A stretch of DNA of 32,000 bases from the NCBI GenBank assembly GCA_026692865.1, contig JAPLNI010000057.1, forward strand, positions 460,476 through 492,475. Reading direction: 5' to 3'. This DNA comes from Planctomycetota bacterium (lineage in GTDB: Bacteria; Planctomycetota; Planctomycetia; Pirellulales; Pirellulaceae). Shown piece after piece: positions 3,683-31,183 of the stretch; positions within the stretch are counted from its first letter, which is position 1; each line of letters starts with the position of its first letter. A program made the translations under genes and the position numbers. The notes beneath the pieces were generated by a model, which saw only the letters and a program-made list of their open reading frames with translations, did no database searches and was not told where the DNA came from.

Positions 3683-4771
3683 ATGAAGGATGTTTTGGAG
3701 TCGACTTCGCGGGGTTTGTACTGCGTACCGGGCGACTTTTATATTGACCCATGTTTACCCGTTAATCGGGCGGTGGTCACCCACGCGCACTCGGACCACG
3801 CTCGCTGGGGTTGCAAACGGTACCTTGCTGCGAAACCCTGTGAGCAATTACTGCGAATGCGGATGAGTCCGGATGCTGAATTTCGTTTTTTGCCCTATGG
3901 CGAAACGATCACAATCGGCGGTGTTCAAATCAGTTTTTACCCTGCGGGCCATATCTTAGGCTCAGCACAAATTCGTCTTGAGTACCAGGGCTTGGTGATT
4001 TTAATCACAGGCGATTACAAACTGGGGTACGATTCGACTTGCGATTCATGGCAACCCATGCGTTGTCACCACATGATCAGCGAATCGACTTTTGGTTTAC
4101 CTATCTACCGATGGCCATCTCAACAAGTGGTATTCGAGTCGATCAATCAATGGTGGCGAGATTGCCGCGAGCAGGGGAAGTGTTGCGTGCTGTATGGATA
4201 CGCTATTGGCAAGAGCCAAAGATTGCTTGCCGGACTGGATCCTACGATCGGAACAATTTATTGCCACGGAGCTGTTCAAAAAGGAAACGAGGCTTACCGG
4301 CGAACAGGAATCCATTTACCTGAAACCACCTATGTCGGATCTGTTACAGGGAAGCATGATTGGAAGGGAGCGATGGTTGTAGCTGTTCCCAGCGTCCATG
4401 GTACTCCTTGGCTTAAAAAGTTCGGTCGTTACAGTACAGCTATGGCGAGTGGTTGGATGGCTGTTAGGGGTGCTCGTCGCCGAAGATCGGTTGATCGTGG
4501 ATATGTTTTAAGCGACCATGTAGATTGGCCATCACTGATGACGGCAATCCATGAATGCAACCCCGAAACAGTTTGGTTAACGCATGGATTCACAGCAACG
4601 GTGGCGCGGTATCTTGTCGAACAGGGACGGGATGCACGTGTGCTGGACTTGCTAGGTCGAGATCTGGGTGAAGAAGATAAGGATGAAGAAGAATCGAGTG
4701 ACGAGGATTTTATCGACGAACCAATCGGTCAAGGAAACGAATCACCAGAGATTGAGGCCACGACTTCATGA
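3683..4771 (+). CDS. Ligase-associated DNA damage response exonuclease (metallo-beta-lactamase / beta-CASP fold)
   Basis: 362-aa ORF. MBL motif VVTHAHSDHARW. The stop overlaps the ligase start (ATGA at 4768-4771). Its position is the one usual for the exonuclease in the four-gene ligase-associated cassette. Acidic C-terminal tail (EEDKDEEESSDEDFIDE). Confidence 0.85.
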   Translation: MKDVLESTSRGLYCVPGDFYIDPCLPVNRAVVTHAHSDHARWGCKRYLAAKPCEQLLRMRMSPDAEFRFLPYGETITIGGVQISFYPAGHILGSAQIRLEYQGLVILITGDYKLGYDSTCDSWQPMRCHHMISESTFGLPIYRWPSQQVVFESINQWWRDCREQGKCCVLYGYAIGKSQRLLAGLDPTIGTIYCHGAVQKGNEAYRRTGIHLPETTYVGSVTGKHDWKGAMVVAVPSVHGTPWLKKFGRYSTAMASGWMAVRGARRRRSVDRGYVLSDHVDWPSLMTAIHECNPETVWLTHGFTATVARYLVEQGRDARVLDLLGRDLGEEDKDEEESSDEDFIDEPIGQGNESPEIEATTS

Positions 4772-6393
4772 TTCGGTTTGCTGCCTTGTTCGATGCAATT
4801 GATAGAACGACCAAAACCAATGAAAAGCTAACGGCATTGGTCAACTACTTTCGCGAAGCGGATCATGCGGATGCTGCTTGGGCGACCTATTTCCTTTGCG
4901 GATCCAAGTTGAAACAATTGGTCCCAACAAAACTACTTCGGGCGTGGGCCGCACAAGAGGCCGATATCCCACCTTGGCTATTCGAGGAATCTTATCACAC
5001 GGTTGGGGATTTGGCGGAGACCTTAACTTTAACGGTACCGCCGGGCAACTTGGCCAGCGATGAGTCACTATCGACTTGGGTAGAACAGCGACTAATACCG
5101 TTGCGAGGGATGGCGGAAGCAGAACAGCATCAAGTCGTTGTCGCGATTTGGAATGAAACCCCGTTGGAGATGCGATTGGTAATTTTAAAACTGATTACGG
5201 GCGCATTTCGAGTAGGCGTTAGCAAGTCGATGGTGACGCGTGCTGTGGCGGAGTACGCTGGTGTATCCTCCGATGTCATTTCGCATCGTCTGATGGGTAC
5301 TTGGAAGCCCACTGCGGAATTCTTTGAGAAGTTGATTTCAAAAGAAGTTCAAGACACCATTTCCAGTCAGCCCTTTCCTTTTTGTTTAGCGCATCCGGTT
5401 GATCCCGCATTGTTTGATCCGGAATTGGGCCCAGGAGGAATTGGAAAAATCAGCGACTTTGCAGCCGAATGGAAATGGGATGGAATTCGAGGACAAGTGA
5501 TTCGACGCGACCAACAGGTTTTTGTTTGGTCGCGAGGTGAAGAGCTTATGGAGAACCGCTGGCCCGAAATCGAATCCGCCGCTCAACTTTTGCCTGATGG
5601 AACAGTTCTTGACGGCGAGATCTTGGCGTCGTTAGGCGAGAATCAAGTGCTGCCTTTCGCGCAGCTTCAGAAGCGAATTGGTAGAAAAGTGGTTAGCAAC
5701 AAGCTTTTGAAAGAAGTGCCCGTCATCTTTCAAGCGTTTGATCTGCTTCAAGATGCAGGACAAGACATTCGAACTTTGCAATTCTCCGAAAGGAGGCGAC
5801 GGTTGGAAAATCTGCTTTCGACAGTGAACCATCCCAACTTTTGCGTCACCCAACTCATTCCAGGAAATTCCTGGGATGAATGGTCCAAAGTTCGCGGCCA
5901 AAGCCGAGCCATGAATGCAGAGGGCTTGATGCTAAAGCGATGGAATGCAGCTTACGAAGTAGGGCGAGTTCGCGGGGTGTGGTGGAAATGGAAGGTTTCG
6001 CCCTACACGATCGATGCCGTGCTGATTTACGCTCAGAAGGGTCACGGAAAGCGGTCGGGGCTTTACACGGACTATACTTTCGCACTCTGGGACGGCGACA
6101 GATTGGTACCCTTTGCAAAAGCATATAGTGGGTTGGACGATCGGGAAATCAAAAAGATCGATCGATTCGTTCGTCAAAACACAAAAGAAGCGTTTGGACC
6201 AGTGCGGAGCGTCGCGCCTGCTTTGGTAATGGAGCTCGCGTTTGAAGGGTTGCAAATCAGTTCGCGTCACAAAAGTGGAATCGCAACACGTTTCCCTCGA
6301 ATCGTGCGATGGAGACATGATAAGAAACCGGAGGACGCGAATACCCTGAATGAATTGATGGGTTTATTGCCCGACTCGGAGCCTCAAGGATAG
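4768..6393 (+). CDS. ATP-dependent DNA ligase (bacterial ligase-associated-DDR type)
   Basis: 541-aa ORF. Adenylation motif I KxDG in AAEWKWDGIRGQVI. Further nucleotidyltransferase/OB-like motifs (DGEIL, EGLMLKR, WWKWK). Translationally coupled to the upstream exonuclease gene. Confidence 0.9.
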   Translation: MIRFAALFDAIDRTTKTNEKLTALVNYFREADHADAAWATYFLCGSKLKQLVPTKLLRAWAAQEADIPPWLFEESYHTVGDLAETLTLTVPPGNLASDESLSTWVEQRLIPLRGMAEAEQHQVVVAIWNETPLEMRLVILKLITGAFRVGVSKSMVTRAVAEYAGVSSDVISHRLMGTWKPTAEFFEKLISKEVQDTISSQPFPFCLAHPVDPALFDPELGPGGIGKISDFAAEWKWDGIRGQVIRRDQQVFVWSRGEELMENRWPEIESAAQLLPDGTVLDGEILASLGENQVLPFAQLQKRIGRKVVSNKLLKEVPVIFQAFDLLQDAGQDIRTLQFSERRRRLENLLSTVNHPNFCVTQLIPGNSWDEWSKVRGQSRAMNAEGLMLKRWNAAYEVGRVRGVWWKWKVSPYTIDAVLIYAQKGHGKRSGLYTDYTFALWDGDRLVPFAKAYSGLDDREIKKIDRFVRQNTKEAFGPVRSVAPALVMELAFEGLQISSRHKSGIATRFPRIVRWRHDKKPEDANTLNELMGLLPDSEPQG

Positions 6394-6444
6394 TGAACAG
6401 TAGCCAACGAGAGAGTCTAAACAAGAATTTTGGTGTTCGGGTAT

Positions 6445-6537
6445 TCTCGTACTCGTACTCAGGCGTTAGCCGGTACTCGTACTCGCTTTGCCGTTGAATC
6501 GAGTACGAGTACCATTTCATTGAGTACGAGTACGAGA
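6445..6537 (+). repeat. Nested double-hairpin repeat element, copy A, built from GTACTCGTACTC units arranged direct-direct-inverted-inverted
   Basis: Outer stem 6445-6460 / 6522-6537 (TCTCGTACTCGTACTC / GAGTACGAGTACGAGA, 16 bp perfect). Inner stem 6472-6485 / 6500-6513 (14 bp perfect) with a 14-nt loop. Unpaired spacers of 11 nt and 8 nt (ATTTCATT). Weaker flank similarity to copy B extends to about 6424-6553. Confidence 0.85.
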
Positions 6538-6614
6538 TTTCAGCAACGTATTTCAACTGCAAAACGCAACGTAACCAATTCAAACCAATTAGCCATTAGT
6601 AGTCACATTCCACA

Positions 6615-9095
6615 GTGCCCAACCAAGTTCCATTGAAACGCCTGCTCGATTACTTTGAGAGCAAAGGACACAAGCCGTTTCCTTTCCAACGAGACGCATG
6701 GAAAGCTTATGCTGAGGGTTCTAGCGGTTTAGTTCATTCGGCTACAGGGACAGGAAAGACGCTTGCTGTTTGGCTTGGACCAATACTGAGTTGGTTAAAG
6801 CAGAACAAAGATCAAGACCAATGGAATCCGAAGAATCCGCCGCCGCTGCGCGTGTTGTGGATTACACCGCTTCGCGCTTTGGCCGCCGACACTGAAAATG
6901 CCCTCCGATCTCCGATTGAAGCGATGAAGCTCCCTTGGCTTTTAGAATCTCGCACGGGCGACAGTCTTGCTAGCGTTAAGGCTAAACAACTCAAGCGGTT
7001 GCCGACTGCTTTGATTACAACCCCAGAAAGTCTTTGTCTTTTGCTGACACACGCTGCGTTGCAATCGCAATTGAGTCAGATCGAGGGGGTGATTGTAGAC
7101 GAATGGCATGAATTGCTAGGCAGTAAGCGAGGGGTGCAAGTGGAGTTGGCATTGGCCCGACTTCGCAGGCTCAATCCATCGCTGCGAACTTGGGGACTCT
7201 CCGCCACGCTTGGCAATCTGGACGAAGCAGGAGAGGCATTGTTTGGGGTTGCATCCACCGTTCCACGTAAGATCATCCAAGGTAAAAGCAAAAAGCGATT
7301 GAAGCTTGAATCTTTGATACCCGACAAGATGGAACGTTTCCCGTGGTCTGGCCATATTGGAACACGCATGGTGCGACAAGTATCGGAGCAAATTTCACAG
7401 GTCGCGAGCGCGTTGGTTTTTGCGAACACGCGATCGCAAACGGAAATTTGGTATCAGCATTTGTTGCAACATCGTCCTGATTGGGCAGGACAGATCGCTG
7501 TCCATCATGGGTCGCTAGATATCAGTGTGCGCGACTGGGTCGAAAATGGGTTGCGAAGTGGTAAGTTGCGAGCCGTCGTTTGTACGAGCAGCCTTGACTT
7601 AGGGGTCGACTTTTCAGCGGTAGATCTTGTCCTTCAAGTGGGCAGCCCTAAAGGCTCGGCTCGTTTGCTGCAGCGTGCGGGGCGAAGTGGTCACCAACCC
7701 GGCGCCGAAAGTCGGCTAGTCTTTGTTCCGACCAACGCTCTGGAACTGATCGAGATGGCGGCTGCCAAGGAAGCGATCCAGCAGGGCAAGATGGAGGCTC
7801 GTTTGCTGCTGAGCAAACCACTGGATGTTTTGATCCAGCATGCCGTGACGATCGCCATCGGGGGCGGTTTCCATTCAAAAGATTTGTTTGACGAAGTCCG
7901 AACAACCCAAGCGTTCCAAAATCTTACGGAAGACGAATGGCAATGGATTCTAGATTTCATTGTTCACGGTGGAAGTTCCTTGACCGCTTACCCGGAATTT
8001 CATCGAGTTCAATTGGTGGACGACCAGTACCAAGTATCGATGCGGCGCATCATTACTTTGCATCGCATGAATATTGGCACCATTGTTTCGGATACGGCGA
8101 TGAAGGTAAGGTACATGAGCGGCAGTACGATGGGTACCGTCGAAGAAAGTTTTATTTCAAAGCTGAAGGAAGGGGATCGTTTTTTGTTTGCGGGTAGGCT
8201 CGTAGAATTGGTGATCGTTCGCGATAACACTGCTTACGTAAAGCGATCGAAGGGGACTCCGGATGCGGTGCCACGATGGATGGGCGGGAGAATGCCGCTG
8301 TCAAGCGAACTGAGCACCGCGCTGCGCGATAAGATTCACGAAGCGTCGGAAAGCCATTTTGCTGGTCCCGAAATGAAATCCCTAAAAGGGTTGTTCGAGC
8401 TTCAGCAACGCTGGAGCGCTGTGCCAAAAAGAGATGAGCTTCTGATCGAACTGGTGCGCGAAAGAGCAGGGTACCATGCCTTTCTTTTCCCATTTGAAGG
8501 ACGTTTGGTGCATGAAGGCATGGCGTCTGTGTTGGCATACCGATTGACGCGTTTGCAACGCACCACAATGAGCATGGCATGCAATGACCATGGCATTGTT
8601 TTGCAATCGCCCCATGTGATCGAGATCGAGAAAGCGATAGCTCAAGGTTTGTTTTCTGCTGATAGACTCGAAGAGGACGTTCGGCAAAGTATGAACGCCA
8701 CTGAAATGGCCAAACGGCAGTTCCGTCAGATCGCTCGCGTATCGGGTTTGATCCAGTCTGGTTTACCTGGCCAACGCAAAAGCACCAATCATATCCAGGC
8801 CAGCAGCAATCTTTTCTTTGATGCATTTAGCGAACATGATTCGGGAAATTTACTGCTAAAGCAGTGCCGCAGAGAGGTACTTGAACAGCAGTTGGAATGG
8901 ACGCGTTTGCGTCTCGCGTTAGAGCGGATGGAGAATGGAAAGATCACGTTCATGTATCCAACTAAAGTGACGCCACTGGCTTTTTCGCTACTGGTGGATA
9001 AACTTCGCGAGCGAGTCAGTAGCGAAACCCTGGCTGACAGGGTCGAACGCATGCAAAAGGAACTTGAAAATGCTGCCGAAGGGAGCTCAAGGTAG
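6615..9095 (+). CDS. Ligase-associated DNA damage response DEXH-box helicase (Lhr-core-like, superfamily 2)
   Basis: 826-aa ORF with a GTG start. Walker A/motif I SATGTGKT; motif II VIVDEWHEL (DEWH); motif VI LLQRAGRSGH. Position in the cassette between the ligase and PdeM. Confidence 0.9.
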   Translation: MPNQVPLKRLLDYFESKGHKPFPFQRDAWKAYAEGSSGLVHSATGTGKTLAVWLGPILSWLKQNKDQDQWNPKNPPPLRVLWITPLRALAADTENALRSPIEAMKLPWLLESRTGDSLASVKAKQLKRLPTALITTPESLCLLLTHAALQSQLSQIEGVIVDEWHELLGSKRGVQVELALARLRRLNPSLRTWGLSATLGNLDEAGEALFGVASTVPRKIIQGKSKKRLKLESLIPDKMERFPWSGHIGTRMVRQVSEQISQVASALVFANTRSQTEIWYQHLLQHRPDWAGQIAVHHGSLDISVRDWVENGLRSGKLRAVVCTSSLDLGVDFSAVDLVLQVGSPKGSARLLQRAGRSGHQPGAESRLVFVPTNALELIEMAAAKEAIQQGKMEARLLLSKPLDVLIQHAVTIAIGGGFHSKDLFDEVRTTQAFQNLTEDEWQWILDFIVHGGSSLTAYPEFHRVQLVDDQYQVSMRRIITLHRMNIGTIVSDTAMKVRYMSGSTMGTVEESFISKLKEGDRFLFAGRLVELVIVRDNTAYVKRSKGTPDAVPRWMGGRMPLSSELSTALRDKIHEASESHFAGPEMKSLKGLFELQQRWSAVPKRDELLIELVRERAGYHAFLFPFEGRLVHEGMASVLAYRLTRLQRTTMSMACNDHGIVLQSPHVIEIEKAIAQGLFSADRLEEDVRQSMNATEMAKRQFRQIARVSGLIQSGLPGQRKSTNHIQASSNLFFDAFSEHDSGNLLLKQCRREVLEQQLEWTRLRLALERMENGKITFMYPTKVTPLAFSLLVDKLRERVSSETLADRVERMQKELENAAEGSSR

Positions 9096-9275
9096 CCAAC
9101 GATGGACGCTTTATCCAAGGATGCTATCGTTATGCCGACAGGCATCACAACAAATGAGCCGATGGCGTTAGCCACGGGTACCGACACGACTAAAGTTTGC
9201 CATCCGGCACTTACTGCAAGCAGCAATTGCAAAGAACCAATGTTACTATCATTAGGGCACAAAACGTCTGACGAA

Positions 9276-9926
9276 ATGCTCGAGGTTTCCATTGAAGGGA
9301 TTCGCTTGTGGCTGCATGCGAAGCGGGGTGTCTTTTGGCCTGACAAAAGAACTTTATTTATCGCAGACACTCATTTTGGAAAAGAAGCAACGTTTCGTAG
9401 CCAAGGAATCGCAGCACCGCGAGGCAGCACCCGGGCCACGTTGAACACCATTGCAGAAATGATCGCAGAATGCGATGCGTCTCGTTTGATTTTGTTAGGT
9501 GATATGTTCCATGCGCAATCGTCTTTGTCGCAGGATATTCGGGAGGCTCTGGACCGTTTCTTCAGATCGCATCCACACCTGAAAACCAGTTTGGTTTTAG
9601 GCAACCATGACCGCGGTATCCATGCTTTGATTCAAGATTGGCCAATAGATATTATCGATTCGGGAACCGTTTTGGATTTGATTAGCATTTCGCATTTCCC
9701 ACAAGTACCTAGCCAGCCCGCTAAACTGCTTCTGTGTGGGCATCTGCATCCGGCGTATCGTTTCCAGTCCAAGCTAGATTCGGTCGGGAAATTGTCATGT
9801 TTTTGGCTATCCAATCGCCAGCTTGTTTTGCCTGCGATCGGTGAATTTACGGGAACACAAGTGGTCCATCCGAGCAAAACAGATCAAACCTGGGTCATCG
9901 TGGATGACCGAATACTTCGAGTGTAA
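9276..9926 (+). CDS. pdeM: Ligase-associated DNA damage response endonuclease PdeM (binuclear metallophosphoesterase)
   Basis: Motifs LFIADTHFGKE, LLGDMFH, LGNHDR, CGHLHP. The ORF is open from 9102, but the first 58 codons are low-complexity and have no family counterpart that I recognise. The ATG at 9276 leaves about 24 aa before the first metal motif, which is typical for this family. The start is therefore uncertain (9102, 9240 or 9276). Confidence 0.8.
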   Translation: MLEVSIEGIRLWLHAKRGVFWPDKRTLFIADTHFGKEATFRSQGIAAPRGSTRATLNTIAEMIAECDASRLILLGDMFHAQSSLSQDIREALDRFFRSHPHLKTSLVLGNHDRGIHALIQDWPIDIIDSGTVLDLISISHFPQVPSQPAKLLLCGHLHPAYRFQSKLDSVGKLSCFWLSNRQLVLPAIGEFTGTQVVHPSKTDQTWVIVDDRILRV

Positions 9927-10180
9927 TGAATATGCCGCTGTCACCTGCAGATATCGATCGAATCATTCAAATGGCTTGGGAAGATCGAACCGCATTCGAT
10001 ACGATTGAAACTCAGTTTGGCCTCACTCCTGGGGAGGTCATCAAACTCATGCGTTCCGAGATGAAGCCATCTTCATTTCGAATGTGGCGGGAACGAACCG
10101 CGGGGAGAAAAACAAAACATATCGCCCTTCGAGACTTCAAGGTCGGTCGCTTTCGATGTCCTGATCAAAAGGGCCCGTGA
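9926..10180 (+). CDS. TIGR03643 / DUF2805 family small protein
   Basis: 84-aa ORF. Hallmark RIIQMAWEDRTAFDTIETQFGL...VIKLMR...SSFRMWRERTAGRKTKH. Its ATG overlaps the pdeM stop (TAATG at 9924-9928). Confidence 0.75.
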   Translation: MNMPLSPADIDRIIQMAWEDRTAFDTIETQFGLTPGEVIKLMRSEMKPSSFRMWRERTAGRKTKHIALRDFKVGRFRCPDQKGP

Positions 10181-10242
10181 TTTGGGCGTTCTATCCTCTT
10201 ATGCGCCTCTTCTCGGCGAACGCTCTCTAGTCTTGCTTCCAA

Positions 10243-10344
10243 TCGTACTCGTACTCAATGAAATGGTAATCGTACTCCTACTCGGTTGAATGATTCGAAT
10301 CGAGTAGGAGTACGAGTACCGCCGATGGCTGAGTACGAGTACGA
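10243..10344 (-). repeat. Nested double-hairpin repeat element, copy B (inverted relative to copy A)
   Basis: Outer stem 10243-10256 / 10331-10344 (14 bp perfect). Inner stem 10265-10284 / 10301-10320 (19 of 20 bp, three hexamer units per arm) with a 16-nt loop. The 8-nt spacer AATGAAAT is the exact reverse complement of ATTTCATT in copy A. Flank similarity to copy A extends to about 10228-10378. Confidence 0.85.
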
Positions 10345-10414
10345 AAAGAAAGGGATTACGAACAAAAATTTCTTTCAGGTGTGGGCGATTGGTGAGGAGT
10401 GTCTGCAATTCTTG

Positions 10415-11203
10415 TTATCTCTGACAAACCGCACAAGCATACATCTGTCGATTGCCAAGCAGCCATTTCTGTGTAGCTGATGCACAAATTGGAGAAAATT
10501 CCTTTTTATAGATCCACAGCCGCTCTTCGGAAGTTAGTTTGCTAAGAGGCTTATCCGATTCGTCGCGACTTTTTGTGATTATTCGATTGTACTTCACACC
10601 GACTTCGAGCAGTCGAACTGAAGTCTTCCAAAGCTCATCAAACTCTTCGTGTGTAAAAGAACAACTTGGACGCGTTGGATGAACACTCATCAAGAAAAGT
10701 ATCTCCGCTCGATAGATGTTGCCTATGCCTGCGATGATCGATTGATCCAGGAGCAACTGACCAATTGGCTTTTTGCTTTTCTGAATCCGAGCCCATGCGC
10801 GCTCTGGATTTGCATCGGTCCGAAGCGGATCTTCGCCGATTTTCTTCCTGGAGTCTGCTATCTGTTGAGCATTCAGGACTACACACTGATTGGGGCCATT
10901 GAGGTCCAACGTGTTTGTCTTTCCAATAAATCGAACGCGAACCGCACCACGTGGTTCAGGCGGTGGTGACGCGTGCAACCGAAACTTACCGTACAACCCA
11001 AGATGAACATGAAGAACATGAACTCCTGAGAAAAAGTAATAGAGATGCTTCCCATGCGCTTCCACGCTTTTCAACGTCCTCCCATCCAGCAATTCAGAGC
11101 CTTCAGCAAACCGCCCCTGTGGTGAGCTAACCTTTAATCGTTGCCCCGAAAACCACTTAGATTGGTCGCGTGCGAGTCGATGAACCGTATGTCCCTCTGG
11201 CAT
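10415..11203 (-). CDS. Fpg/Nei family DNA glycosylase / AP lyase (endonuclease VIII-like)
   Basis: N-terminus MPEGHTVHRLARD. The family needs Pro2 as the catalytic nucleophile, so the start is placed at the internal ATG (11203) rather than the ORF-track start at 11272. H2TH-like region IAGIGNIYRAEILF. The C-terminal finger is CASA...CAVCQ. Confidence 0.85.
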   Translation of the reverse strand: MPEGHTVHRLARDQSKWFSGQRLKVSSPQGRFAEGSELLDGRTLKSVEAHGKHLYYFFSGVHVLHVHLGLYGKFRLHASPPPEPRGAVRVRFIGKTNTLDLNGPNQCVVLNAQQIADSRKKIGEDPLRTDANPERAWARIQKSKKPIGQLLLDQSIIAGIGNIYRAEILFLMSVHPTRPSCSFTHEEFDELWKTSVRLLEVGVKYNRIITKSRDESDKPLSKLTSEERLWIYKKEFSPICASATQKWLLGNRQMYACAVCQR

Positions 11204-11352
11204 TATTTTTACATCTGAGTGAAAAGAACTAACTTGCAAAACAGGTATTACAATCGTGCCCCAACATCTCATGAGACGCTTGACGGCAATCTAGAATTTG
11301 ATTCAGACGAAAGCTCGCACAGTATTTAATCACATGGTTGGTATCAGTAGGT

Positions 11353-11565
11353 ATGCGTAAACATTCGAAATCGACTTTACCCACGAAGCTGTGCAAGGCA
11401 TGTAATCGACCATTCGCATGGCGGAAAAAATGGGAAAGGGACTGGGATAACGTAAACTACTGCAGCGAACGTTGCAAACGCCAGGGGAGTATAGTTCCCC
11501 CGGCTAGCAATAAAGCGGATAGTAGTAAAACTGCCAGTAGTAAAGCTACAGACATAAGGGCTTAA
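11353..11565 (+). CDS. DUF2256 domain protein (small Cys-rich protein that co-occurs with cryptochrome/photolyase genes)
   Basis: Motif [32 protein letters not shown]. The ORF is open from a TTG at 11338, and the first ATG at 11353 is preferred. The stop lies 1 nt before the GTG start of the CPF gene. Confidence 0.8.
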
Positions 11566-11566
11566 A

Positions 11567-13135
11567 GTGCATAGAAGTCCTGTTCAAATTGTTTGGCTCA
11601 AGCGCGATCTTCGACTGAACGATCACCGGCCGATCTTGGAAGCCAGTCTTGATGGTCCTACAGTGGTCTTGTATGTCTTCGAGCCAAAGCTTTGGTCGAT
11701 GCCGGAGATGGACCGATCCCACTTCGACTTCATCGTGCAGTCCTTGCAAGTGCTTTCTCGGAGTCTTGAAGCAATAGGTGGTCGATTAGCAATTCGTGTC
11801 GGCGAGTTACCCGAGGTGTTCGCTGAGATTGCCCGTTTTGTCGACATTGCTGCAATATACTCTCACGAAGAAACTGGAAACGGGTTTACTTTCGATCGTG
11901 ACAAGCGAGTTGCAAGATGGGCTCGCGAGATCGGTGTTCCGTGGAATCAGTATCCTCAAAACGGTGTGGTACGGCCACTCAAAAGCAGGAATGGCTGGGC
12001 AGCACTTTGGGAAACGAGAATGAAATCACCAATGGCCACAACACCTGATCGTATCGAGATTCCCGACCATTTCGATTGGGGAACAATACCAGAAGGTGAT
12101 GAACTCGAGCTAAAAAAGACGCAGAAGAAAAACCTCCAAATCGGTGGTGAGCGTCAAGCGATTGAAACGCTTCAATCGTTCTTAGATGGTCGAGGCTGCG
12201 ACTATCGCAAGGGGATGTCGAGTCCATCTACGGCGAAGGATAGTTGTAGTCGTCTAAGCCCCTCTCCCGCGTGGGGGTGCATCTCAATCAAACAGGTATA
12301 TCAACAGTTGCAAAGTCGACAGCAAGAGATTCGCGAGGCACCTGCTGGTGCAAGTGACTCGCGTTGGTATGGTTCGCTCAATTCATTTTCTTCACGGCTT
12401 GCATGGCACTGTCACTTCATGCAAAAACTCGAGGATGAACCGGAACTTGAGTTTCAGAATATCAGTCGAGTCTACGATGGGCTACGTGAGAACGAGTTTA
12501 ATCAAGAGCGATTTGAAGCATGGAAGGAAGGCATGACCGGCTATCCAATGATCGACGCGTGTATGCGTGCACTTAATGAGACTAGCTGGATCAATTTTCG
12601 CATGCGAGCGATGCTCGTTTCGTTCGCATCGAATCACTTATGGCTACATTGGCGTCCGACTGCAGTACATCTTGCACAGCATTTTCTTGACTTTGAACCG
12701 GGTATTCATTTCTCGCAGTTTCAAATGCAATCTGGCACAACCGGAATCAATACCATCCGAATCTATTCCCCTGCCAAGCAGGTAATCGATCACGATCCTA
12801 CGGGCGTATTCATAAAACAATATGTCCCGGACTTGGCGAATGTTCCCAACGAATTTCTATCCGAACCGCACCGAATGCCTTTGGATCTGCAAACTAAGAT
12901 CGGTTGCATAATCGGCAAAGACTATCCGCCACCGATAGTAGAGCACTGCAAGGCCTACAAATCGGCTCAAGAAAAGATCTTCTCGATTCGTCAAACGAAC
13001 TCAGCAATTAGCGAAGCCAAACGGGTATTTGTAAAACATGGTTCACGCAAAAATCGCGATCCGTTGCCGAAACCGAAGAAGAAGTCGGGCTTTCAGCAAT
13101 TGTCCCTTTTCGATGATTTCGATGATCCGCAATGA
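11567..13135 (+). CDS. Cryptochrome/photolyase family (CPF) FAD-binding protein; subclass not assignable by eye
   Basis: 522-aa ORF. N-terminal photolyase alpha/beta motif IVWLKRDLRLNDH. FAD-binding-domain motifs GGERQAIETLQSFL, SRLSP...WGCIS, TGYPMIDACMRAL, TSWINFRMRAMLVSF. Adjacent to DUF2256. Confidence 0.85.
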   Translation: MHRSPVQIVWLKRDLRLNDHRPILEASLDGPTVVLYVFEPKLWSMPEMDRSHFDFIVQSLQVLSRSLEAIGGRLAIRVGELPEVFAEIARFVDIAAIYSHEETGNGFTFDRDKRVARWAREIGVPWNQYPQNGVVRPLKSRNGWAALWETRMKSPMATTPDRIEIPDHFDWGTIPEGDELELKKTQKKNLQIGGERQAIETLQSFLDGRGCDYRKGMSSPSTAKDSCSRLSPSPAWGCISIKQVYQQLQSRQQEIREAPAGASDSRWYGSLNSFSSRLAWHCHFMQKLEDEPELEFQNISRVYDGLRENEFNQERFEAWKEGMTGYPMIDACMRALNETSWINFRMRAMLVSFASNHLWLHWRPTAVHLAQHFLDFEPGIHFSQFQMQSGTTGINTIRIYSPAKQVIDHDPTGVFIKQYVPDLANVPNEFLSEPHRMPLDLQTKIGCIIGKDYPPPIVEHCKAYKSAQEKIFSIRQTNSAISEAKRVFVKHGSRKNRDPLPKPKKKSGFQQLSLFDDFDDPQ

Positions 13136-25329: not shown

Positions 25330-27159
25330 ATGAAGCTGAAGGATATGCGCTGTGAAACGAAACGATTTTGGATGATCTTCATCTGCCTGTTGCTGTTGGA
25401 GACAATCGAGCCCATTCCGATGATGGCTTCGGAAAACTGGGTGCAGTGGCGAGGCCCCAGTGCTGACGGGCATGCGGGAGTCCATGCAAAGCCCCCAAGG
25501 CAGTGGGACAAATTAAAGAACATCGCATGGGCCGTTGACTTGCCCGGAGAAGGCTCCGCTACACCCATTGTGTTTGGTAATCAAATTTTCATTCTGTCGG
25601 CGGTCAAGACCGAACGCAAAAGTACGATCGCGATCGTAAATGACGAACGAGCCAAAACAACTCCAGACGAGTTCTTTTATCAATTTGTTGTGTCCAGCTA
25701 TGATCGTAAATCAGGGAAAGAACTTTGGCAGCGAATCGCGATTGAACAAGTCCCACACGAAGGCAAACACGATACAAATACCTATGCGGCGGGATCCCCA
25801 ACTACGGATGGTGAGCGACTTTACTTTTCCTTTGGATCTCGAGGCGTCTTCTGCTACTCGCTGGATGGGGATCTGCTATGGAAGATTGATCTAGGCGATA
25901 TGCGTACGCGGAGCGGTTGGGGAGAAGCTGTCACGCCAACATTGACTCAGGATGCCTTGATTATCAATTGGGACCAGGAAGAAGGATCCTTTATCGCCGC
26001 GATCGATAAACAAACGGGGCACATTCGTTGGAAAGTGGATCGTGTTGGCGAAGTCAGTTCGTGGAATACCCCGTTTGTCGCCACCTACCAAGGCAAGCAA
26101 CAGGTGATCGTGAACGGAACGGGTTCCGTCAAGAGCTATAGTGCGACCGACGGAGAACTTCTTTGGGAATGCGGAGGCCAAACGGTGAATGCGATTCCGT
26201 CGCCGATACAGTTCCGCGATTCAGTGATTTGTACGAGCGGTTATCGTGGGGCGCTTGCTTGCTCCATCCCTCTCCAGTCGCGAGGCAATGTTACGGATAG
26301 CCATACAATCGACTGGAAGATCCAACAAGGAACCCCTTATGTTCCCTCACCCATTCTCAGCGGTACAAAGCTGCTGCTCACGTCCGGCAATACGAATGTG
26401 CTCAGTTGCATCGACGCCAGTACCGGCCAAGCGATTCTTGAACGAACTCGGTTGACGGGAATCCGCACCATGTATGCTTCACCCATCTTGGCCAATGGTC
26501 ATTTTTACTTCACCAGTCGCGAAGGTACAACCTTGGTGGTCAAGGACAATGAGACGTTTGATATTGTCGCAACCAATGAACTAGACGATATCATCGATGC
26601 TTCGCTTGTTGCCGTGGACGACCAATTGTTTCTGCGAAGTTGGAGCAAGCTTTACTGCATTCAAGATTTACCAGCGATTGACACCACATCCACAAGTCAA
26701 ATGAATACGGTTCCGCCGATCCCTAGTATCGCATTCAAACAAGTCGATCTCGAAGAGACGATAGAAACTTCTGCCAATGCAAGTATCGGCGATGTCGATG
26801 GCGACGGCGATCTGGACATCGTCTTGGCCAAGGGAAGACACTGGCCGCTTCAAAATCGCATCCTTATCAATGACGGTCAGGGCAATTTTCAAGGCACACA
26901 TCTCGGAGACCGTCCGGATCGTAGCTATACGGCAGCACTGGGAGACTTGGATGCGGATGGCGACCTGGATATGGTTGTCAGTAATGATAAACCCGACCAG
27001 AAGGTCGTTTATCGAAACGAGGGTCAAGGGGTATTCGTAAGCGCTGGTACTTGGGGTGAGGCATCCTGGAATACACGCAATATCGGATTAGCTGACATGA
27101 ATGGGGACCATTATCTGGATCTGATACCAACCCCTGGAAAGTGGCTTCAACTACGATGA
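25330..27159 (+). CDS. Secreted PQQ-like (BamB-like) beta-propeller repeat protein with C-terminal FG-GAP/VCBS-type repeats
   Basis: 609-aa ORF. N-terminal WVQWRGPSADGH motif typical of planctomycete PQQ-propeller proteins. C-terminal repeats GDVDGDGDLDIVLA, GDLDADGDLDMVVS, ADMNGDHYLDLI. Starts 4 bp after the peptidase stop. Confidence 0.8.
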   Translation: MKLKDMRCETKRFWMIFICLLLLETIEPIPMMASENWVQWRGPSADGHAGVHAKPPRQWDKLKNIAWAVDLPGEGSATPIVFGNQIFILSAVKTERKSTIAIVNDERAKTTPDEFFYQFVVSSYDRKSGKELWQRIAIEQVPHEGKHDTNTYAAGSPTTDGERLYFSFGSRGVFCYSLDGDLLWKIDLGDMRTRSGWGEAVTPTLTQDALIINWDQEEGSFIAAIDKQTGHIRWKVDRVGEVSSWNTPFVATYQGKQQVIVNGTGSVKSYSATDGELLWECGGQTVNAIPSPIQFRDSVICTSGYRGALACSIPLQSRGNVTDSHTIDWKIQQGTPYVPSPILSGTKLLLTSGNTNVLSCIDASTGQAILERTRLTGIRTMYASPILANGHFYFTSREGTTLVVKDNETFDIVATNELDDIIDASLVAVDDQLFLRSWSKLYCIQDLPAIDTTSTSQMNTVPPIPSIAFKQVDLEETIETSANASIGDVDGDGDLDIVLAKGRHWPLQNRILINDGQGNFQGTHLGDRPDRSYTAALGDLDADGDLDMVVSNDKPDQKVVYRNEGQGVFVSAGTWGEASWNTRNIGLADMNGDHYLDLIPTPGKWLQLR

Positions 27160-27246
27160 ACTCGGTGTCAAATCTCAACCCGTTTCCTACTACCGATAAT
27201 TTTTGGTTTCATGGCAGATAATCAGCTTCTCGCAATCGAAACGACT

Positions 27247-29697
27247 ATGAAAAAAGTCTACTTAGGGATGTTATTGCTGCTTAGCAGTTCGATGGCTTCC
27301 GCTGGTGATTCGGCTTTGCCTGGAAATCACCCTTTGACGCAGGTGCAAGCCGGGAGTCTGCTAATTTCAGAACTGCGATGTGCGGCTTGCCATACCGATG
27401 TTGCACGCAATTCCATTCCGGAAAAGACTGCTCCGGATTTGGCTGAAGTCGGGACGCGAGTTACCTCGGAGTATTTGCAAAAATTCCTTGCGTCACCATT
27501 AACGGCTCATCCTGGAACGACGATGCCGGACGTGTTGGGAGCACGCTCAGAATCGGAGCGTAAGAAGATTGCTGAAGCGATGACTCACTTCTTAGTCGCC
27601 CTGTCGACCGCAGTGGCTTCCCTCGAGCCTCTCGAGTCTACGGGATCAGTGGATCCTGCGCAAGGCAAAGAGTTATTTCATTCTGTTGGCTGCGTCGCCT
27701 GTCACGGGACTAAGGAATCGGCTTCGGACTCGCAGAGGAATCCCAAACACAACAGTCTGGTCGACGACGTAGACGAAGAGGAAGCTGAAGATCCTGCACG
27801 AGCGGCCAGCCAAGCGATCAAGCCGATGGTGGTTCCTCTCGAACATGTCGCAACAAAGTACAGCGTGAAGTCTCTAAGCGATTTCTTGTTTCAACCGTTA
27901 CGAGTTCGTAGCTCAGGTCGCATGCCCGACATGAAACTGACTCCTTCTGAATCGTTTGCAATTGCTGGTTATCTGGTGGGCGATCAGCCAGGACCTAGTG
28001 CGCCACTCATTCCCGATGCAGCGTTGGTTTCCGCCGGCAAGAAACACTTTCAAGAATTGAATTGCGCTGCATGCCATTCACTCAAGGGCTTCGAAGCTGC
28101 TCCGCCAGTCGGCTCGTTCATGACGAGCTCGTTCAAGACGGCGGACTTTACCGCTGGTTGCTTGTCCACGGTGCCAGGGAAGACGACGAACGATCGAGGC
28201 CCTCGTTTCGATCTCGACAATAATCAGCGACAGGCCATTGTCGCCGCGATTCGAGAAGACGCTGGGGTCCGAGGAAACACCGCGGTCGATTCCGATCCAG
28301 TCGCGTTGGCGAGAACGCTGACTGTCTTTCGCTGTATTGCTTGCCACGTTCGCAACGATTATGGGGGCGTGCATGATGCTTACAATTCCTTCTTCAAGGG
28401 AAGTGAAATGAATCTTGGCGATGATGGTCGTATTCCGCCGCCACTTACGTTGATGGGGGCCAAGCTGAAGCCGTCTTGGATGAAGAAAGTGCTCTTCGAT
28501 GGTGAAAGCGTTCGCCACTACATGGTGACTCGAATGCCACAGTATGGGTCGGCTAATCTGCAGCACTTGCCTAGTCTCTTCCGGCGGCTTGATGTTTTGA
28601 CTGGTCCACAGATGAACATCCCGAATCCAGGTGGTCGCAACGAAAGTGAACGGCAGCAAGAAAAGCTGATTCGTGCAGCGGGCCGAGAACTGCTTGGCGA
28701 CAAAGGGGTGAATTGCGTAGCCTGTCATTCATTCAACGGAAAAGCTGCGAATGTAAATCAGGGGATCGACTTACTGACAAGCTTTGAGAGACTTCAGCCT
28801 GAGTGGTTTCATCGTTACCTTCGAAACCCCGGAGCTTTTCGGCCTCGCACTGTGATGCCTACCGCTTGGCCTGATGGCGTTGCAGCCTTCACCGCAATTT
28901 TAGACGGTAACACGGACCGTCAGATCGAGGCGATTTGGTATTATCTTTCCCTTGGCACGTCGGCGGCTGACCCTTCGGGCGTTCGAGCCGTCAGTACAAA
29001 AATCAAAGTTGGCGAACAGACAATAGTCCATCGCGGTCGTAGTCGAATCGCTGGCTTTCGAGGCATCGCGGTTGGTTTACCAGAAAGACTAAGCTATGCC
29101 TTCAACGCTGAAACTGGAACTCTATCCGCCATTTGGCAAGGGGACTTTATTGGCGTGAACTGGAGCGGTCAAGGGTCGGGGGATTTCAATCCGGCTAGCG
29201 AACCAATTGCTTTGCCACAGGACGTCTCTTTCGTCGCACTTGAGAATGAGAATACTTCGTGGCCATTGTTGCCCGTGATGACCAAAGAGGCCCCCACCAA
29301 TCCTGATCCGCTTTACCCAAAGAATGTTGGTTATCAGTTTCGAGGATACTTTCAAGACAAGTTGTCGATACCAACGTTCCAGTATCGTAGCGGCACGATC
29401 GAAATCAAAGATCGGTCTGTTGTCGAGGGTACTGGGGATCAACAACGGCTCAAGCGAGTCTTTCAGTTTCAGTCTCCCACGCCACAGATTATTTGGTTCC
29501 GCGCTCTTGTCGGTGCTGTCCATCGCGAGTCCGATCAAGTCTTTCGAAGTGGTCGTTTGAGGCTGCACATCCCCGCAGCCGAAACAAAACTGAGATCGCT
29601 ATCCGACGAACTGACGCAATTCGAATTGTTGTTGCGTCTGGACATTCCTCAAGGCAAATCCTCCCTGGAGCTCCGGTATGAACCGATCAAGAAGTAG
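27247..29697 (+). CDS. Secreted pentaheme c-type cytochrome with a heme-free C-terminal domain of about 250 aa
   Basis: Five CxxCH motifs: CAACH, CVACH, CAACH, CIACH, CVACH. Signal peptide MKKVYLGMLLLLSSSMASA from the ATG at 27247 (the ORF is open from 27211). Confidence 0.8.
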   Translation: MKKVYLGMLLLLSSSMASAGDSALPGNHPLTQVQAGSLLISELRCAACHTDVARNSIPEKTAPDLAEVGTRVTSEYLQKFLASPLTAHPGTTMPDVLGARSESERKKIAEAMTHFLVALSTAVASLEPLESTGSVDPAQGKELFHSVGCVACHGTKESASDSQRNPKHNSLVDDVDEEEAEDPARAASQAIKPMVVPLEHVATKYSVKSLSDFLFQPLRVRSSGRMPDMKLTPSESFAIAGYLVGDQPGPSAPLIPDAALVSAGKKHFQELNCAACHSLKGFEAAPPVGSFMTSSFKTADFTAGCLSTVPGKTTNDRGPRFDLDNNQRQAIVAAIREDAGVRGNTAVDSDPVALARTLTVFRCIACHVRNDYGGVHDAYNSFFKGSEMNLGDDGRIPPPLTLMGAKLKPSWMKKVLFDGESVRHYMVTRMPQYGSANLQHLPSLFRRLDVLTGPQMNIPNPGGRNESERQQEKLIRAAGRELLGDKGVNCVACHSFNGKAANVNQGIDLLTSFERLQPEWFHRYLRNPGAFRPRTVMPTAWPDGVAAFTAILDGNTDRQIEAIWYYLSLGTSAADPSGVRAVSTKIKVGEQTIVHRGRSRIAGFRGIAVGLPERLSYAFNAETGTLSAIWQGDFIGVNWSGQGSGDFNPASEPIALPQDVSFVALENENTSWPLLPVMTKEAPTNPDPLYPKNVGYQFRGYFQDKLSIPTFQYRSGTIEIKDRSVVEGTGDQQRLKRVFQFQSPTPQIIWFRALVGAVHRESDQVFRSGRLRLHIPAAETKLRSLSDELTQFELLLRLDIPQGKSSLELRYEPIKK

Positions 29698-29701
29698 TCC
29701 G

Positions 29702-31183
29702 ATGCGAACTTCGTTTGTCCTGGTCATGATTGTTCTTTTGGGGCTGGGACCAGTCCACGCAGAGGATGTCGGTGAGCGCTGGGGGACCGAAGAACGCGAG
29801 CGTGATTATTACCCAATCGTCAATATCACTTTGCCGAAGGATACGGTCATCGAGGCGGGTGCCTTTGCAGTGCTATCGGATCGGCAATTCGCAGTCGGCA
29901 CTAGGCGTGGCGAGATTTTTTTGATCGATGGCATCGATGCGCCGAAGCCCACGCCCTCGTTTCATCGTTTTGCATCGGGGCTCGATGAGATCTTTGGATT
30001 GTCATGGAAGGAGAACGCATTCCGTGTAACACAAAGCTGCGAATTAACTCGCGTCAGCGACTCAGATAGCGACGGTGTTGCCGACCGATTTGAGACAATC
30101 TCCGATGGCTGGGGTTATGCGAATTACCATGAGTACGCATTCGGATCGAAGCTTAATACGGATGGAAGTCAATTCGTGGCGCTTGGTTTATCCGCGTCGT
30201 ATTACTCCCATGCGTTGAATCGAGGGCTTATCATGAAGATCGCGCCCGATGGAAAAACGACCGCTTTTGCCAGCGGCTTGCGCAGTCCGGGCGGGATCGG
30301 GTTCGATGAGCATGGTGCGCTCTTTTATGTTGAGAGTCAGGGTCCATGGAATTGTTCATGCAGCTTGAAGGCTGTTTCGCCAAACAGCTTTCACGGCCAT
30401 CCAGCCAGCTTCAACTGGTATCCGTTCTCGCCAGAGCTAGGGCCTGAGCCCGAGATGCCGAAGACGGAAAGTCGTATCGTTACGGAAAAGAACCGTGTCA
30501 AACAATTGGTACCTTACGCGGTGATTTTTCCATACATCCGGATGGGCAGATCGATTACCGCCTTCAGTGTGGATCGGACACAAGGCAAGTTCGGTCCCTT
30601 TGAGAATCAGATGTTCCTTGGCGACTACACGCAATCGATCTTGATGCGGGCTACGACCGAGCAGATCAATGGTGTTTGGCAGGGTGCCTGCTATCCATTC
30701 CGCGAGGGTCTTTCGACGGGTATCCTCAATGTGGAATTCACTCCAGGAGGCAATTTGCTTTGCGGCGGTACCAATCGTGGTTGGCCGGTTCGAGGCATCA
30801 AACCGTTCGCTCTCGAACGACTCGAATGGAGCGGTATAATGCCTTTCGAGATAAACCGAATCACCATCGAGCCCGATGGCTTCCAAGTCACCTTCACGAA
30901 ACCGGTCGAACCAATCACGGGCAACGCCCCAAGTTCCTATGCGATCTCCGCCTTCACGCATCCATATCATGCTGGCTACGGCGGACCGGAGATCGACCAG
31001 CACCAACCAAAAGTGAAGTCGGTGTCGCTTGCTGAAGACGGTCTCTCCGCGAAACTCGTTCTCGAAAAGCTCGATCCGGGATTCGTGTACGAGCTGGATC
31101 TAGTCCGCTTGCGTTCGTGCGACCAGGATGAATTGCTGCACCGCAATGCATTCTATACAGTGAACGAAGTACCATCCCGATGA
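29702..31183 (+). CDS. Secreted beta-propeller protein, glucose/sorbosone-dehydrogenase-like (related to PVC dehydrogenase domains), with a C-terminal beta-sandwich-like domain
   Basis: Signal peptide MRTSFVLVMIVLLGLGPVHA from the ATG at 29702, 4 nt after the cytochrome stop. An alternative ATG at 29678 overlaps the cytochrome gene by 20 nt. Motifs GLRSPGGIGFDEHGALFYVESQGPW and FHGHPAS. Confidence 0.7.
   Translation: MRTSFVLVMIVLLGLGPVHAEDVGERWGTEERERDYYPIVNITLPKDTVIEAGAFAVLSDRQFAVGTRRGEIFLIDGIDAPKPTPSFHRFASGLDEIFGLSWKENAFRVTQSCELTRVSDSDSDGVADRFETISDGWGYANYHEYAFGSKLNTDGSQFVALGLSASYYSHALNRGLIMKIAPDGKTTAFASGLRSPGGIGFDEHGALFYVESQGPWNCSCSLKAVSPNSFHGHPASFNWYPFSPELGPEPEMPKTESRIVTEKNRVKQLVPYAVIFPYIRMGRSITAFSVDRTQGKFGPFENQMFLGDYTQSILMRATTEQINGVWQGACYPFREGLSTGILNVEFTPGGNLLCGGTNRGWPVRGIKPFALERLEWSGIMPFEINRITIEPDGFQVTFTKPVEPITGNAPSSYAISAFTHPYHAGYGGPEIDQHQPKVKSVSLAEDGLSAKLVLEKLDPGFVYELDLVRLRSCDQDELLHRNAFYTVNEVPSR

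Follow-up and report, generated by a model that had tools for sequence, protein, structure and literature searches.

Why do a DNA ligase and a helicase gene, which overlap or nearly abut in orthologous cassettes, stand 221 nt apart (6394-6614, from the ligase stop to the helicase start) in a stretch of 32,000 nucleotides from a Pirellulaceae bacterium (Planctomycetota; GenBank assembly GCA_026692865.1, contig JAPLNI010000057.1, positions 460,476 to 492,475), in its full length referred to here as the window? [quoted passage not shown] Most likely, this hairpin, designated copy 1 in the following, is the internal core of a MITE which was inserted at the ligase-helicase junction, and not a component of the repair cassette. 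It is composed of the following parts (coordinates are those of the window; ORF, open reading frame).

6445-6537: core of copy 1, a 93-bp nested double hairpin, each strand of which is predicted to adopt a four-way junction fold.
6445-6461: 5' arm of the outer stem, TCTCGTACTCGTACTCA, 17 nt, 100% complementary to the 3' arm.
6461-6472, plus strand: linker AGGCGTTAGCCG, a mini-hairpin with the stem GGC/GCC and the loop GTTA, paired in the RNA fold.
6472-6485: 5' arm of the inner stem, 14 bp, perfect.
6486-6499: apical loop, the place of a four-helix-bundle ORF in full-length relatives.
6500-6513: 3' arm of the inner stem, 14 bp, perfect.
6513-6521, minus strand: linker AATGAAATG, a left-type linker of the subfamily, by which the minus strand is tentatively taken as "sense".
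6521-6537: 3' arm of the outer stem, TGAGTACGAGTACGAGA, 17 nt, 100% complementary to the 5' arm.
6550-6564, minus strand: type-i terminal inverted repeat, TTTTGCAGTTGAAAT, with 11 of its 15 positions agreeing with the consensus TTTTGAAGTTGCGCT.
6428-6442, plus strand: possible degenerate partner repeat, TTTTGGTGTTCGGGT, about 10 of 15 positions, unconvincing.

The 12-mer GTACTCGTACTC occurs four times in copy 1, twice on the plus strand (6449-6460 and 6473-6484) and twice on the minus strand (6501-6512 and 6522-6533), which is the direct-direct-inverted-inverted arrangement described initially. Allowing for at most one mismatch, the window harbours ten such 12-mers compared to an expectation of 0.05. 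The inner stem is perfect over 14 bp, as had been reported, and its arms stretch to 17 nt at 94% complementarity. The outer stem is likewise perfect, but it measures 17 nt and not the 16 nt given before. In the predicted fold the outer stem is followed by the small linker hairpin, the inner stem and the second linker. For RNA spanning 6424-6553 the calculated minimum free energy amounts to -60.9 kcal/mol on the plus strand (z = -7.85) and to -57.7 kcal/mol on the minus strand (z = -9.45), and for the core as DNA (6440-6542) to -35.3 kcal/mol (z ~ -10) and -36.3 kcal/mol (z ~ -11), respectively. Promoter and terminator scans at copy 1 and at a second copy (copy 2, see below) revealed no promoter-like or terminator-like site, and at neither copy is a G+C-rich hairpin combined with the U-tract of an intrinsic terminator, in agreement with the earlier statement that copy 1 is not a canonical one. 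The family-wide hairpin flanks TTTTC...GAAAA place A-rich sequence 3' of the hairpin on both strands.

A second copy, which the initial annotation had overlooked, is situated at a distance of 3.7 kb from copy 1.

10205-10403, plus strand (tentative "sense"): copy 2, a complete 199-bp type-ii MITE.
10205-10223, plus strand: left terminal repeat of copy 2, GCCTCTTCTCGGCGAACGC.
10243-10344: nested GTACTC hairpin core of copy 2.
10385-10403, plus strand: right terminal repeat of copy 2, GCGATTGGTGAGGAGTGTC.

Six of the ten 12-mer matches of the window lie within this copy (10245-10342), in the same nested design as in copy 1 and in opposite orientation to it. The reverse complement of copy 1 is 79% identical to copy 2, the linker CAATGAAATGG included, and the inner stem of copy 2 contains one additional hexamer, with both arms changed (GTACTCCTACTC / GAGTAGGAGTAC). 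Its predicted RNA fold is even assigned -64.1 kcal/mol (z = -12.3). From end to end copy 2 can be aligned with the type-ii MITEs at the loci L077, L110, L053, L045 and L038, its length of 199 bp comparing with 198 bp in L077 and 207 bp in L110. It occupies most of the 234-nt gap between the stop codons of the convergent DUF2805 and Fpg/Nei genes. A first polarity of the window copies, deduced from a GTTCG flank motif, predicted full-length proteins with an EYEY-HFI-EYEY tail and was abandoned, as none of 120 hits had it. Since AATGAAATG resembles the left-type linker AGTGAAACG, the polarity was reversed; judged by its linker, copy 1 is thus tentatively antisense to the operon.

The outer boundaries of the family emerged from an alignment of all copies having the AATGAAATG linker. 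Clean relatives comprise 150-210 bp and possess outer terminal repeats as well as 8-bp target-site duplications. The type-i repeat, TTTTGAAGTTGCGCT, is found 27 times in the loci compared to four times in shuffled sequence, and usually stands in inverted pairs, 151-184 bp apart, which enclose a GTACTC core. Just outside of six type-i GTACTC elements, 8-bp direct repeats are present which match at 8, 8, 7, 7, 6 and 6 of 8 positions. The type-ii repeat reads GAC..TCGCTGATCGCCACC, and two of its elements, L077 and L110, exhibit complete duplications (8/8) at a constant offset. Altogether, the duplication is complete in L089, L120, L077 and L110 (P(8/8) = 0.0004 under the null) and comprises seven of eight positions in L065, L104 and L048 (P(7/8 or better) = 0.009). 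In copy 1 the repeat TTTTGCAGTTGAAAT (minus strand, 6564-6550) is located 31 nt ahead of the first hexamer, compared to 30 nt in the clean relatives, and the left end together with the sub-terminal region is alignable with type-i MITEs, while the end at 6428-6442 looks truncated or degenerate. Because the outer parts belong to the element, the inserted DNA exceeds the 93-bp hairpin, and because only one recognisable (type-i) end is kept, copy 1 is probably immobile.

A scan of metagenomes with the type-i repeat yielded at least 120 stretches (L148-L267). Twelve units of 1506-1528 bp with type-i ends encode a DDE transposase of 454-495 amino acids (PF01609, E = 7e-19) whose nearest kin are IS701/IS4; its best NCBIfam match, IS701, attains 81 bits compared to a cut-off of 150, and it falls below all cut-offs for insertion sequence (IS) families. 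In addition, dozens of type-i units of 93-490 bp display perfect 8-bp duplications, the duplicated target conforming approximately to CTNRCGCK or its complement AGCGNNAG (e.g. L196, L244, L237, L252 and L194). The interiors of these metagenomic type-i MITEs are unrelated palindromes without GTACTC. As the interiors differ, the type-i repeat has to be regarded as that of a broad IS and MITE family of which the GTACTC core represents one interior type. Several full-length IS copies are flanked by inverted instead of direct 8-mers (L182, with CTGGCGCG / CGCGCCAG, as well as L213, L228 and L222), a pattern suggestive of copies recombining with one another or of palindromic insertion targets.

The family, to which both copies of the window belong, bears the hallmarks of DDE transposition. 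Terminal inverted repeats at both ends (in copy 2 and the clean relatives), small size, the lack of an internal transposase, dispersed copies and presence/absence polymorphism at orthologous sites are all features of MITEs, and the window itself contains no transposase. Of the options considered initially, it is the REP/MITE-like one which has stood: the element is multi-copy, widespread, intergenic and missing from orthologous cassettes, and clean relatives possess terminal inverted repeats and 8-bp duplications.

The orthologous sites indicate when the copies entered the locus, whose genes are the following.

3683-4771, plus strand: ligase-associated DNA damage response exonuclease (TIGR04122).
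4768-6393, plus strand: ATP-dependent DNA ligase (TIGR04120), upstream of copy 1.
6615-9095, plus strand: ligase-associated DEXH helicase of the Lhr type (TIGR04121), downstream of copy 1.
9102-9926, plus strand: PdeM (TIGR04123).
9926-10180, plus strand: DUF2805 protein (PF10985).
10415-11272, minus strand: Fpg/Nei-family DNA glycosylase.

The assignments to TIGR04122, TIGR04120, TIGR04121, TIGR04123 and PF10985 exceed the curated profile cut-offs, which bears out the gene identities proposed earlier, and the exonuclease and ligase ORFs do overlap by ATGA (4768-4771). In L135 (92% ligase identity) the ligase and helicase genes overlap and a gap of 26 nt follows DUF2805; in L136 (80% ligase identity) the respective gaps measure 26 nt and 21 nt, and in the contig with P0016 (80% ligase identity) ligase and helicase are 24 nt apart. 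The assertion that the element interrupts the cassette is borne out by these overlapping or closely spaced genes, and the comparison with related genomes, which had been proposed as a check, finds the insert absent from all three. L134 (92% ligase identity) contains a homologous, partly decayed copy 1, with GTGCTCGTGCTC as outer left arm and a longer, degenerate inner right arm, as well as an unrelated spacer of 134 nt after DUF2805 in which copy 2 is absent. Since the genes of orthologous cassettes at 92% and 80% identity overlap or nearly abut, both window copies are derived insertions. As L134 shares copy 1 only, copy 1 was in place before the window lineage and L134 parted, and copy 2 is the younger insertion; going by these alignments, copy 2 is a gain of the window lineage only. 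The cassette works without either copy in close relatives.

Across the orthologous element of L134 a gene for 68 amino acids has been called (L134:6591-6797), almost certainly a spurious ORF made by the repeat, and the ORF of 108 amino acids which overlaps copy 1 on the minus strand (6257-6583) is likewise an artefact. The window copies (units of 137-199 bp) contain no meaningful ORF. The region 3683-13135 of the window forms a small DNA-repair island of exonuclease, ligase, lhr, pdeM, DUF2805, Fpg/Nei and a photolyase (11567-13135); the Fpg/Nei and photolyase neighbours are also present in L135, yet not in L136. The flanking genes bear the planctomycete-specific domains PSD/PSCyt and DUF1552. 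Over 4 kb, window positions 27125-31175 are 87.6% identical in nucleotide sequence to L062:815-4841, a contig of the Planctomycetaceae metagenome-assembled genome (MAG) H1_MAG_00037 (JAIYDN010000056.1), which is the closest genome in the species-representative set. The same contig bears a GTACTC element of intermediate length (L062:6934-7082).

How far the family reaches beyond this locus was assessed by a scan of one genome per species with two GTACTC dimers 3-33 nt apart as the query. The module is present in at least 119 stretches in unrelated contexts. Among the matches listed, Pirellulaceae, Pirellula, Rubripirellula, Roseimaritima, Laterigemmans, Aureliella, Fuerstiella and other Planctomycetota dominate, few are from Verrucomicrobiota, and a single genome contains up to eight loci. 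Merely 19 of 68 GTACTC elements (28%) lie inside long open frames compared to 77% of random segments, and no bias towards convergent gene pairs is discernible. Short-read contigs with an identical ligase break off within copy 1 (window positions 6494, 6525 and 6525), as is expected of a multi-copy repeat. The link to the ligase cassette which the initial annotation had considered does not hold: with at least 119 stretches in dozens of genomes, beside unrelated genes and without positional bias, the element is in substance a dispersed one. A scan of the window against Rfam at gathering thresholds and a permissive scan of 6380-6620 produced only chance hits to miRNA models (E > 0.3), and the literature searched contained no paper on the GTACTC motif or the planctomycete cassette. 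This is consistent with the initial failure to recognise a described repeat family; the GTACTC repeats appear to be an undescribed family spread through Pirellulales and related Planctomycetota.

Modules are also observed in MAGs labelled as non-planctomycete, namely L039 (Chitinophaga), L029 (Anaerolineae), L037 (Lysobacterales), L087 and L117 (Rhodothermales) and L082 (Thermoanaerobaculia), and L039 even contains a complete cassette of the planctomycete type with a four-helix-bundle gene. These could be mis-binned contigs or cases of horizontal transfer. When the ORFs within 1.5 kb of the modules were clustered over the 119 loci, the four-helix-bundle family was the only specific recurrent neighbour. 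DUF1501, DUF1559, PSD/PSCyt and sulfatase genes recur too, but were dismissed as background because they belong to expanded planctomycete paralogue families. A link to phages was rejected as well, the ten stretches from a scan of viral contigs all being unrelated coding Glu-Tyr repeats or AT-rich DNA.

In all loci the core follows one grammar. Each half-unit takes the form TC-(GTACTC)n-A-[stem-loop]-G-(GTACTC)n-GA, and two inverted half-units make up the nested hairpin. The hexamers are almost invariant across the loci; the linkers vary, retaining a small hairpin. Of 57 distinct A...G linkers, 44 form a perfect hairpin compared to 4.1 in shuffles; 15 different stem sequences are represented, and the commonest loops are GCA and GAA. 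In 33 distinct 9-nt linkers 92.4% of the cells pair, and both sides have changed in 18 cells. The covariation score of 0.785 (0.477 when shuffled) is reached in none of 500 shuffles and collapses as soon as the register is slid by one or two columns. Nearest-neighbour models predict none of the 2-bp mini-hairpins to be stable; their support is the covariation, which is evolutionary and not thermodynamic. A type-i MITE at L175:3079-3262 has as its interior a GTGCTC/GAGCAC nested hairpin with every hexamer changed on both arms, and GTGCTC/GAGCAC runs are also found in L009, L015 and L047. On account of this concerted version in L175 the main stems must be able to change on both arms together, and the pattern indicates either compensatory evolution in concert or a sister family. 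Head-to-tail arrays of half-units were noted in L033:6408-6756, L058:3186-3260 and L102:1872-2022 with a period of 21 nt, corresponding to two turns of the DNA helix, and in L029:97-283 with one of 27 nt; the repeat of such arrays consists of a hexamer dimer and a 9-nt mini-hairpin linker.

Where this core comes from is revealed by relatives which still carry a gene in the place of the apical loop. In L063 two half-units flank an ORF of 143-146 amino acids which matches PF05635 (E = 4e-21) and TIGR02436 (E = 2e-21), the four-helix-bundle "23S rRNA intervening-sequence" protein of the S23p/Avd-like family. The left half-unit stops directly ahead of GAAAGGAT and the start codon, and the right half-unit is translated as the protein tail EYEYEY-RGA-EYEYE. 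The same layout exists in five further genomes. The gene-in-repeats arrangement is represented by L063, L048, L039, L068, L137 and L147, and by neither of the window copies. When every ORF of the loci studied was compared with the profile, nine four-helix-bundle genes were detected, every one of which overlaps or abuts a GTACTC module. In a collection of 5.8 billion proteins the family counts at least 8000 candidates; among the 120 best hits, none of which is below 80% identity, 111 have the EYEY tail, and in 96 EYEY-tailed proteins the two EYEY blocks are split by R[DGKN]A, the translated linker. Many four-helix-bundle proteins run past the right half-unit into the conserved flank, with tails such as ...QTARTK... 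in P0126, P0129, P0132, P0137 and P0145, which is the translated outer repeat AGCCAGAACC, or ...NNPMHxSGG... in P0164, P0182 and P0210. Because of this read-through, the annotated C-termini consist in part of translated element ends and might be no functional protein sequence.

The interiors of paired elements measure 381-415 nt with the gene (n = 7), cluster near 130, 96 and 50-60 nt with one element at 172 nt, and comprise 13-30 nt in about 31 hairpin-only elements. Internal deletions which keep both ends of the gene are seen in L028 and in many small called ORFs, among them P0249 (81 amino acids), P0298 (61), P0284 (55) and P0300 (51). The hairpin-only form of the window is the end point of this deletion series, and the core derives from the flanks of the four-helix-bundle gene cassette. 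Outer repeats were sought around all gene-bearing cassettes and are clean only in L048, a unit of 551 bp with type-ii ends and a 7/8 duplication, which carries a single passenger gene but lacks a transposase; in L063 and L028 a 9-nt pair, GTTCTGGCT, is present with no duplication. Tandem cassettes are present in L098:3300-4445 (repeating every 304 nt or so and retaining 96 nt from the 3' end of the four-helix-bundle gene), in L063:2500-3700, where two intact gene copies are adjacent, and in L108:4650-5910, which implies local amplification besides dispersal. Recent transposition of a gene-bearing cassette was considered for P0164, which is identical on 40 contigs, and discarded, as these represent one fixed site in one organism which was sampled repeatedly.

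Taken together, a DDE transposase acting in trans would recognise the outer repeats and insert the unit with an 8-bp duplication. The clean relatives show this course of events, and we envisage it for the window as well, whose two copies would have arrived by it. Internal deletion of the four-helix-bundle gene would have fused the two flanking half-units to give the hairpin-only core. Upon transcription this core is predicted to fold, and provided that the exo-lig-lhr-pdeM genes are co-transcribed, copy 1 would add to their message a four-way hairpin (-61 kcal/mol) which lacks a U-tract. By analogy with rRNA intervening sequences and with the Correia elements of Neisseria, which are cut by RNase III, transcribed copy 1 is a plausible substrate of this enzyme. 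Cleavage could partly uncouple the exo-lig from the lhr-pdeM messages as a side effect, and any role in RNA processing, if there is one, would be a by-product of the insertion instead of something conserved in the cassette.

Several observations weigh against this account of copy 1 and of its family. A convincing second terminal repeat was not found at copy 1, whose flanks, AACAAGAA and CGCAACGT, match at three of eight positions, so that no target-site duplication is detectable there; nor is one at copy 2 (four of eight matches). Among the sequences searched, the type-ii repeat had no transposase partner. The same core subfamily resides in two unrelated backbones, and the near-invariant hexamer and the covarying linkers suggest that the core is under selection and more than simple junk. 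In the gene-bearing L147, L137 and L063 there is no long outer repeat, so the GTACTC/four-helix-bundle cassette is not always within a recognisable MITE backbone, and P0164, being a single fixed site, is no direct evidence for recent movement of gene-bearing copies.

As an alternative, the GTACTC cassette, with or without its four-helix-bundle gene, might itself be mobile by means of its structured ends, possibly with the help of the Avd-like protein, DDE-type MITEs being occasional carriers or landing sites. We rate this as quite unlikely. Besides the two unrelated backbones and the gene-bearing copies without an outer repeat, the conservation of the hexamer over families and phylum-level distances, the concerted GTGCTC/GAGCAC variant of L175 and the tandem half-unit arrays with a 21-nt period speak for it, and so does the old hypothesis, never settled, that the ORF of intervening sequences serves mobility (PMC4990558). 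Yet the boundaries of the core show no duplication or junction signature (a target-site duplication directly at these boundaries was rejected since the flanks merely degenerate into hexamer-like sequence), all clean duplications are located outside the outer repeats, and no reverse transcriptase, integrase or HUH gene is recurrent near the modules or the gene-bearing copies. The half-units could also be more than leftover flanks and serve as the functional ends of a mobile cassette which is self-contained and resembles rRNA intervening sequences; this we regard as improbable. The encoded Avd-like four-helix-bundle protein or RNase III would then recognise the hexamer runs and GNA-type mini-hairpins in the form of folded RNA or of single-stranded DNA, and the hairpin-only copies of the window would be non-autonomous riders able to act as processing sites in a host operon. 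The two backbones of the core, the repeat-less gene copies, the conserved hexamer with its covarying linker hairpins and the 21-nt arrays leave some little room for such an independent system. If it existed, it would account for the presence of the same core in transposon backbones which are unrelated, as well as in rRNA-like stem-loop contexts, and provide the S23p intervening-sequence protein family with its long-sought role in mobility or processing.

According to another explanation, copy 1 is a dedicated, host-selected RNA element, a processing site or stabiliser, which uncouples the expression of exo-lig from that of helicase-pdeM. The very strong folding of both strands, the missing U-tract, by which a terminator is ruled out, and the covarying linker mini-hairpins are in line with such a function, as is the outer stem of L134, which is kept via GTGCTC changes that produce G.U pairs on the sense strand of the operon. 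Furthermore, rRNA intervening sequences with a gene of the same family are cleaved by RNase III in their terminal stem of about 28 bp (PMC4990558). The explanation nevertheless seems quite improbable to us, as the element is missing from orthologous cassettes whose ligase is 92% or 80% identical, occurs beside unrelated genes in many genomes and, by the tentative linker polarity, is antisense to the operon in copy 1.

That the core acts at the DNA level, as a cruciform or a protein-binding array with the hexamers as iteron-like sites for a host factor or the four-helix-bundle protein, is very improbable. It is true that the hexamers are conserved in sequence and not in pairing alone, that the dimers are spaced by 21-24 nt from start to start with a 21-nt period in tandem arrays, and that the perfect arms would permit cruciform extrusion. 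Against this, no binding protein for the candidate hexamer sites has been identified, the right arm codes for the EYEY tail in gene-bearing copies, so that coding and pairing could fix the hexamer without a DNA-binding protein, and the element is absent at the locus in close relatives.

Further candidates were discarded: an integron attC site, which is characterised by RYYYAAC / GTTRRRY core sites and a nearby IntI integrase, since R''/R' core sites and IntI are absent from the sequence and its neighbours; a diversity-generating retroelement, suggested by the Avd context and characterised by a reverse transcriptase and a TR/VR repeat pair beside the four-helix-bundle gene, since there is no reverse transcriptase near gene-bearing copies; and a strict 23S rRNA intervening sequence, since the copies lie between protein-coding genes, with no rRNA in the window and no ORF in the copies. 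A REP/REPIN-type element moved by a RAYT (HUH Y1) transposase is hardly conceivable in spite of the superficially REPIN-like, intergenic, multi-copy and hairpin-forming inverted doublet, because the units start with TC-GTACTC and lack a GTAG or CGTC tag and a CnGA foot, no HUH gene recurs among the ORFs within 1.5 kb of the modules at 119 loci, and the relatives have terminal repeats and 8-bp duplications, while single-strand HUH transposition (IS200/IS605) is not known to yield such duplications. REP/REPIN-RAYT systems are defined by the GTAG/CGTC tag or CnGA foot beside a palindrome of 20-40 nt (PMC3733652, PMC6006769), and Planctomycetes do possess HUH class 3 enzymes, whose flanking hairpins are atypical (PMC6006769).

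On the reading of copy 1 as a MITE core, the cassette's gap of 221 bp is the scar of a transposon instead of a conserved regulatory module, which removes a tempting over-interpretation. Annotators should expect spurious small ORFs over the element, as in L134, and the repeat family breaks short-read assemblies. Beyond the locus, the enigmatic "23S rRNA intervening-sequence protein" family becomes tied to small cassettes, at least some of which move as transposon cargo with target-site duplications. Mobility of intervening sequences, suspected since 1990-93, can now be tested in a setting of thousands of copies. The invariant hexamers together with the covarying mini-hairpins constitute a compact natural system for selection on folded RNA, folded single-stranded DNA or protein-binding sites. 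It is the link of the S23p/Avd-like gene to transposon-borne cassettes that we consider the part worth following.

Among known systems, the GTACTC elements of 137-210 bp resemble bacterial MITEs such as Correia/NEMIS of Neisseria, ERIC and Nezha in that they have no transposase of their own, possess terminal inverted repeats and, in the relatives, target duplications of fixed length, are multi-copy, mostly intergenic and variable between close relatives, and form long hairpins when transcribed. They differ in their interior, which is a modular nested hairpin of hexamer runs parted by covarying mini-hairpins, which occurs in two unrelated terminal-repeat backbones and which is related to a gene cassette and not to the ends of a parent IS. 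While a MITE or REP family is mostly confined to one species or genus, the GTACTC hexamer is conserved across many genera. With REP, BIME and REPIN sequences the family has in common that short intergenic multi-copy palindromes are arranged in inverted doublets; it is set apart by the missing tag and HUH gene and by the duplications of the relatives. As in IS4/IS701-like DDE elements, TTTTGAAGTTGCGCT bounds 1.5-kb PF01609 units, whose ends and 8-bp duplication are common with those of the MITEs; in contrast to them, the transposase of these units remains under the curated cut-offs and the window is without one. L048 has the structure of a mobile insertion cassette, in which IS-type ends surround passenger genes, though it is the sole clean gene-bearing example, and the window copies are gene-less.

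Ultimately, the intervening sequences of 23S rRNA with an S23p ORF, known from Coxiella, Leptospira, Brucella and Xanthomonas, share the PF05635/TIGR02436 gene family with the planctomycete cassettes, and in both the ORF is placed in the loop of a long terminal-repeat stem (about 28 bp in Coxiella). Intervening sequences are regarded as selfish, have long been suspected of mobility and also exist in ORF-less or decaying versions (PMC4990558). Unlike them, the planctomycete elements lie between protein-coding genes and not in the rRNA helices 9, 25 and 45, their stems are hexamer-repeat modules whose 3' arm is translated as the protein tail, and some of the GTACTC copies are equipped with DDE-type terminal repeats and target duplications.

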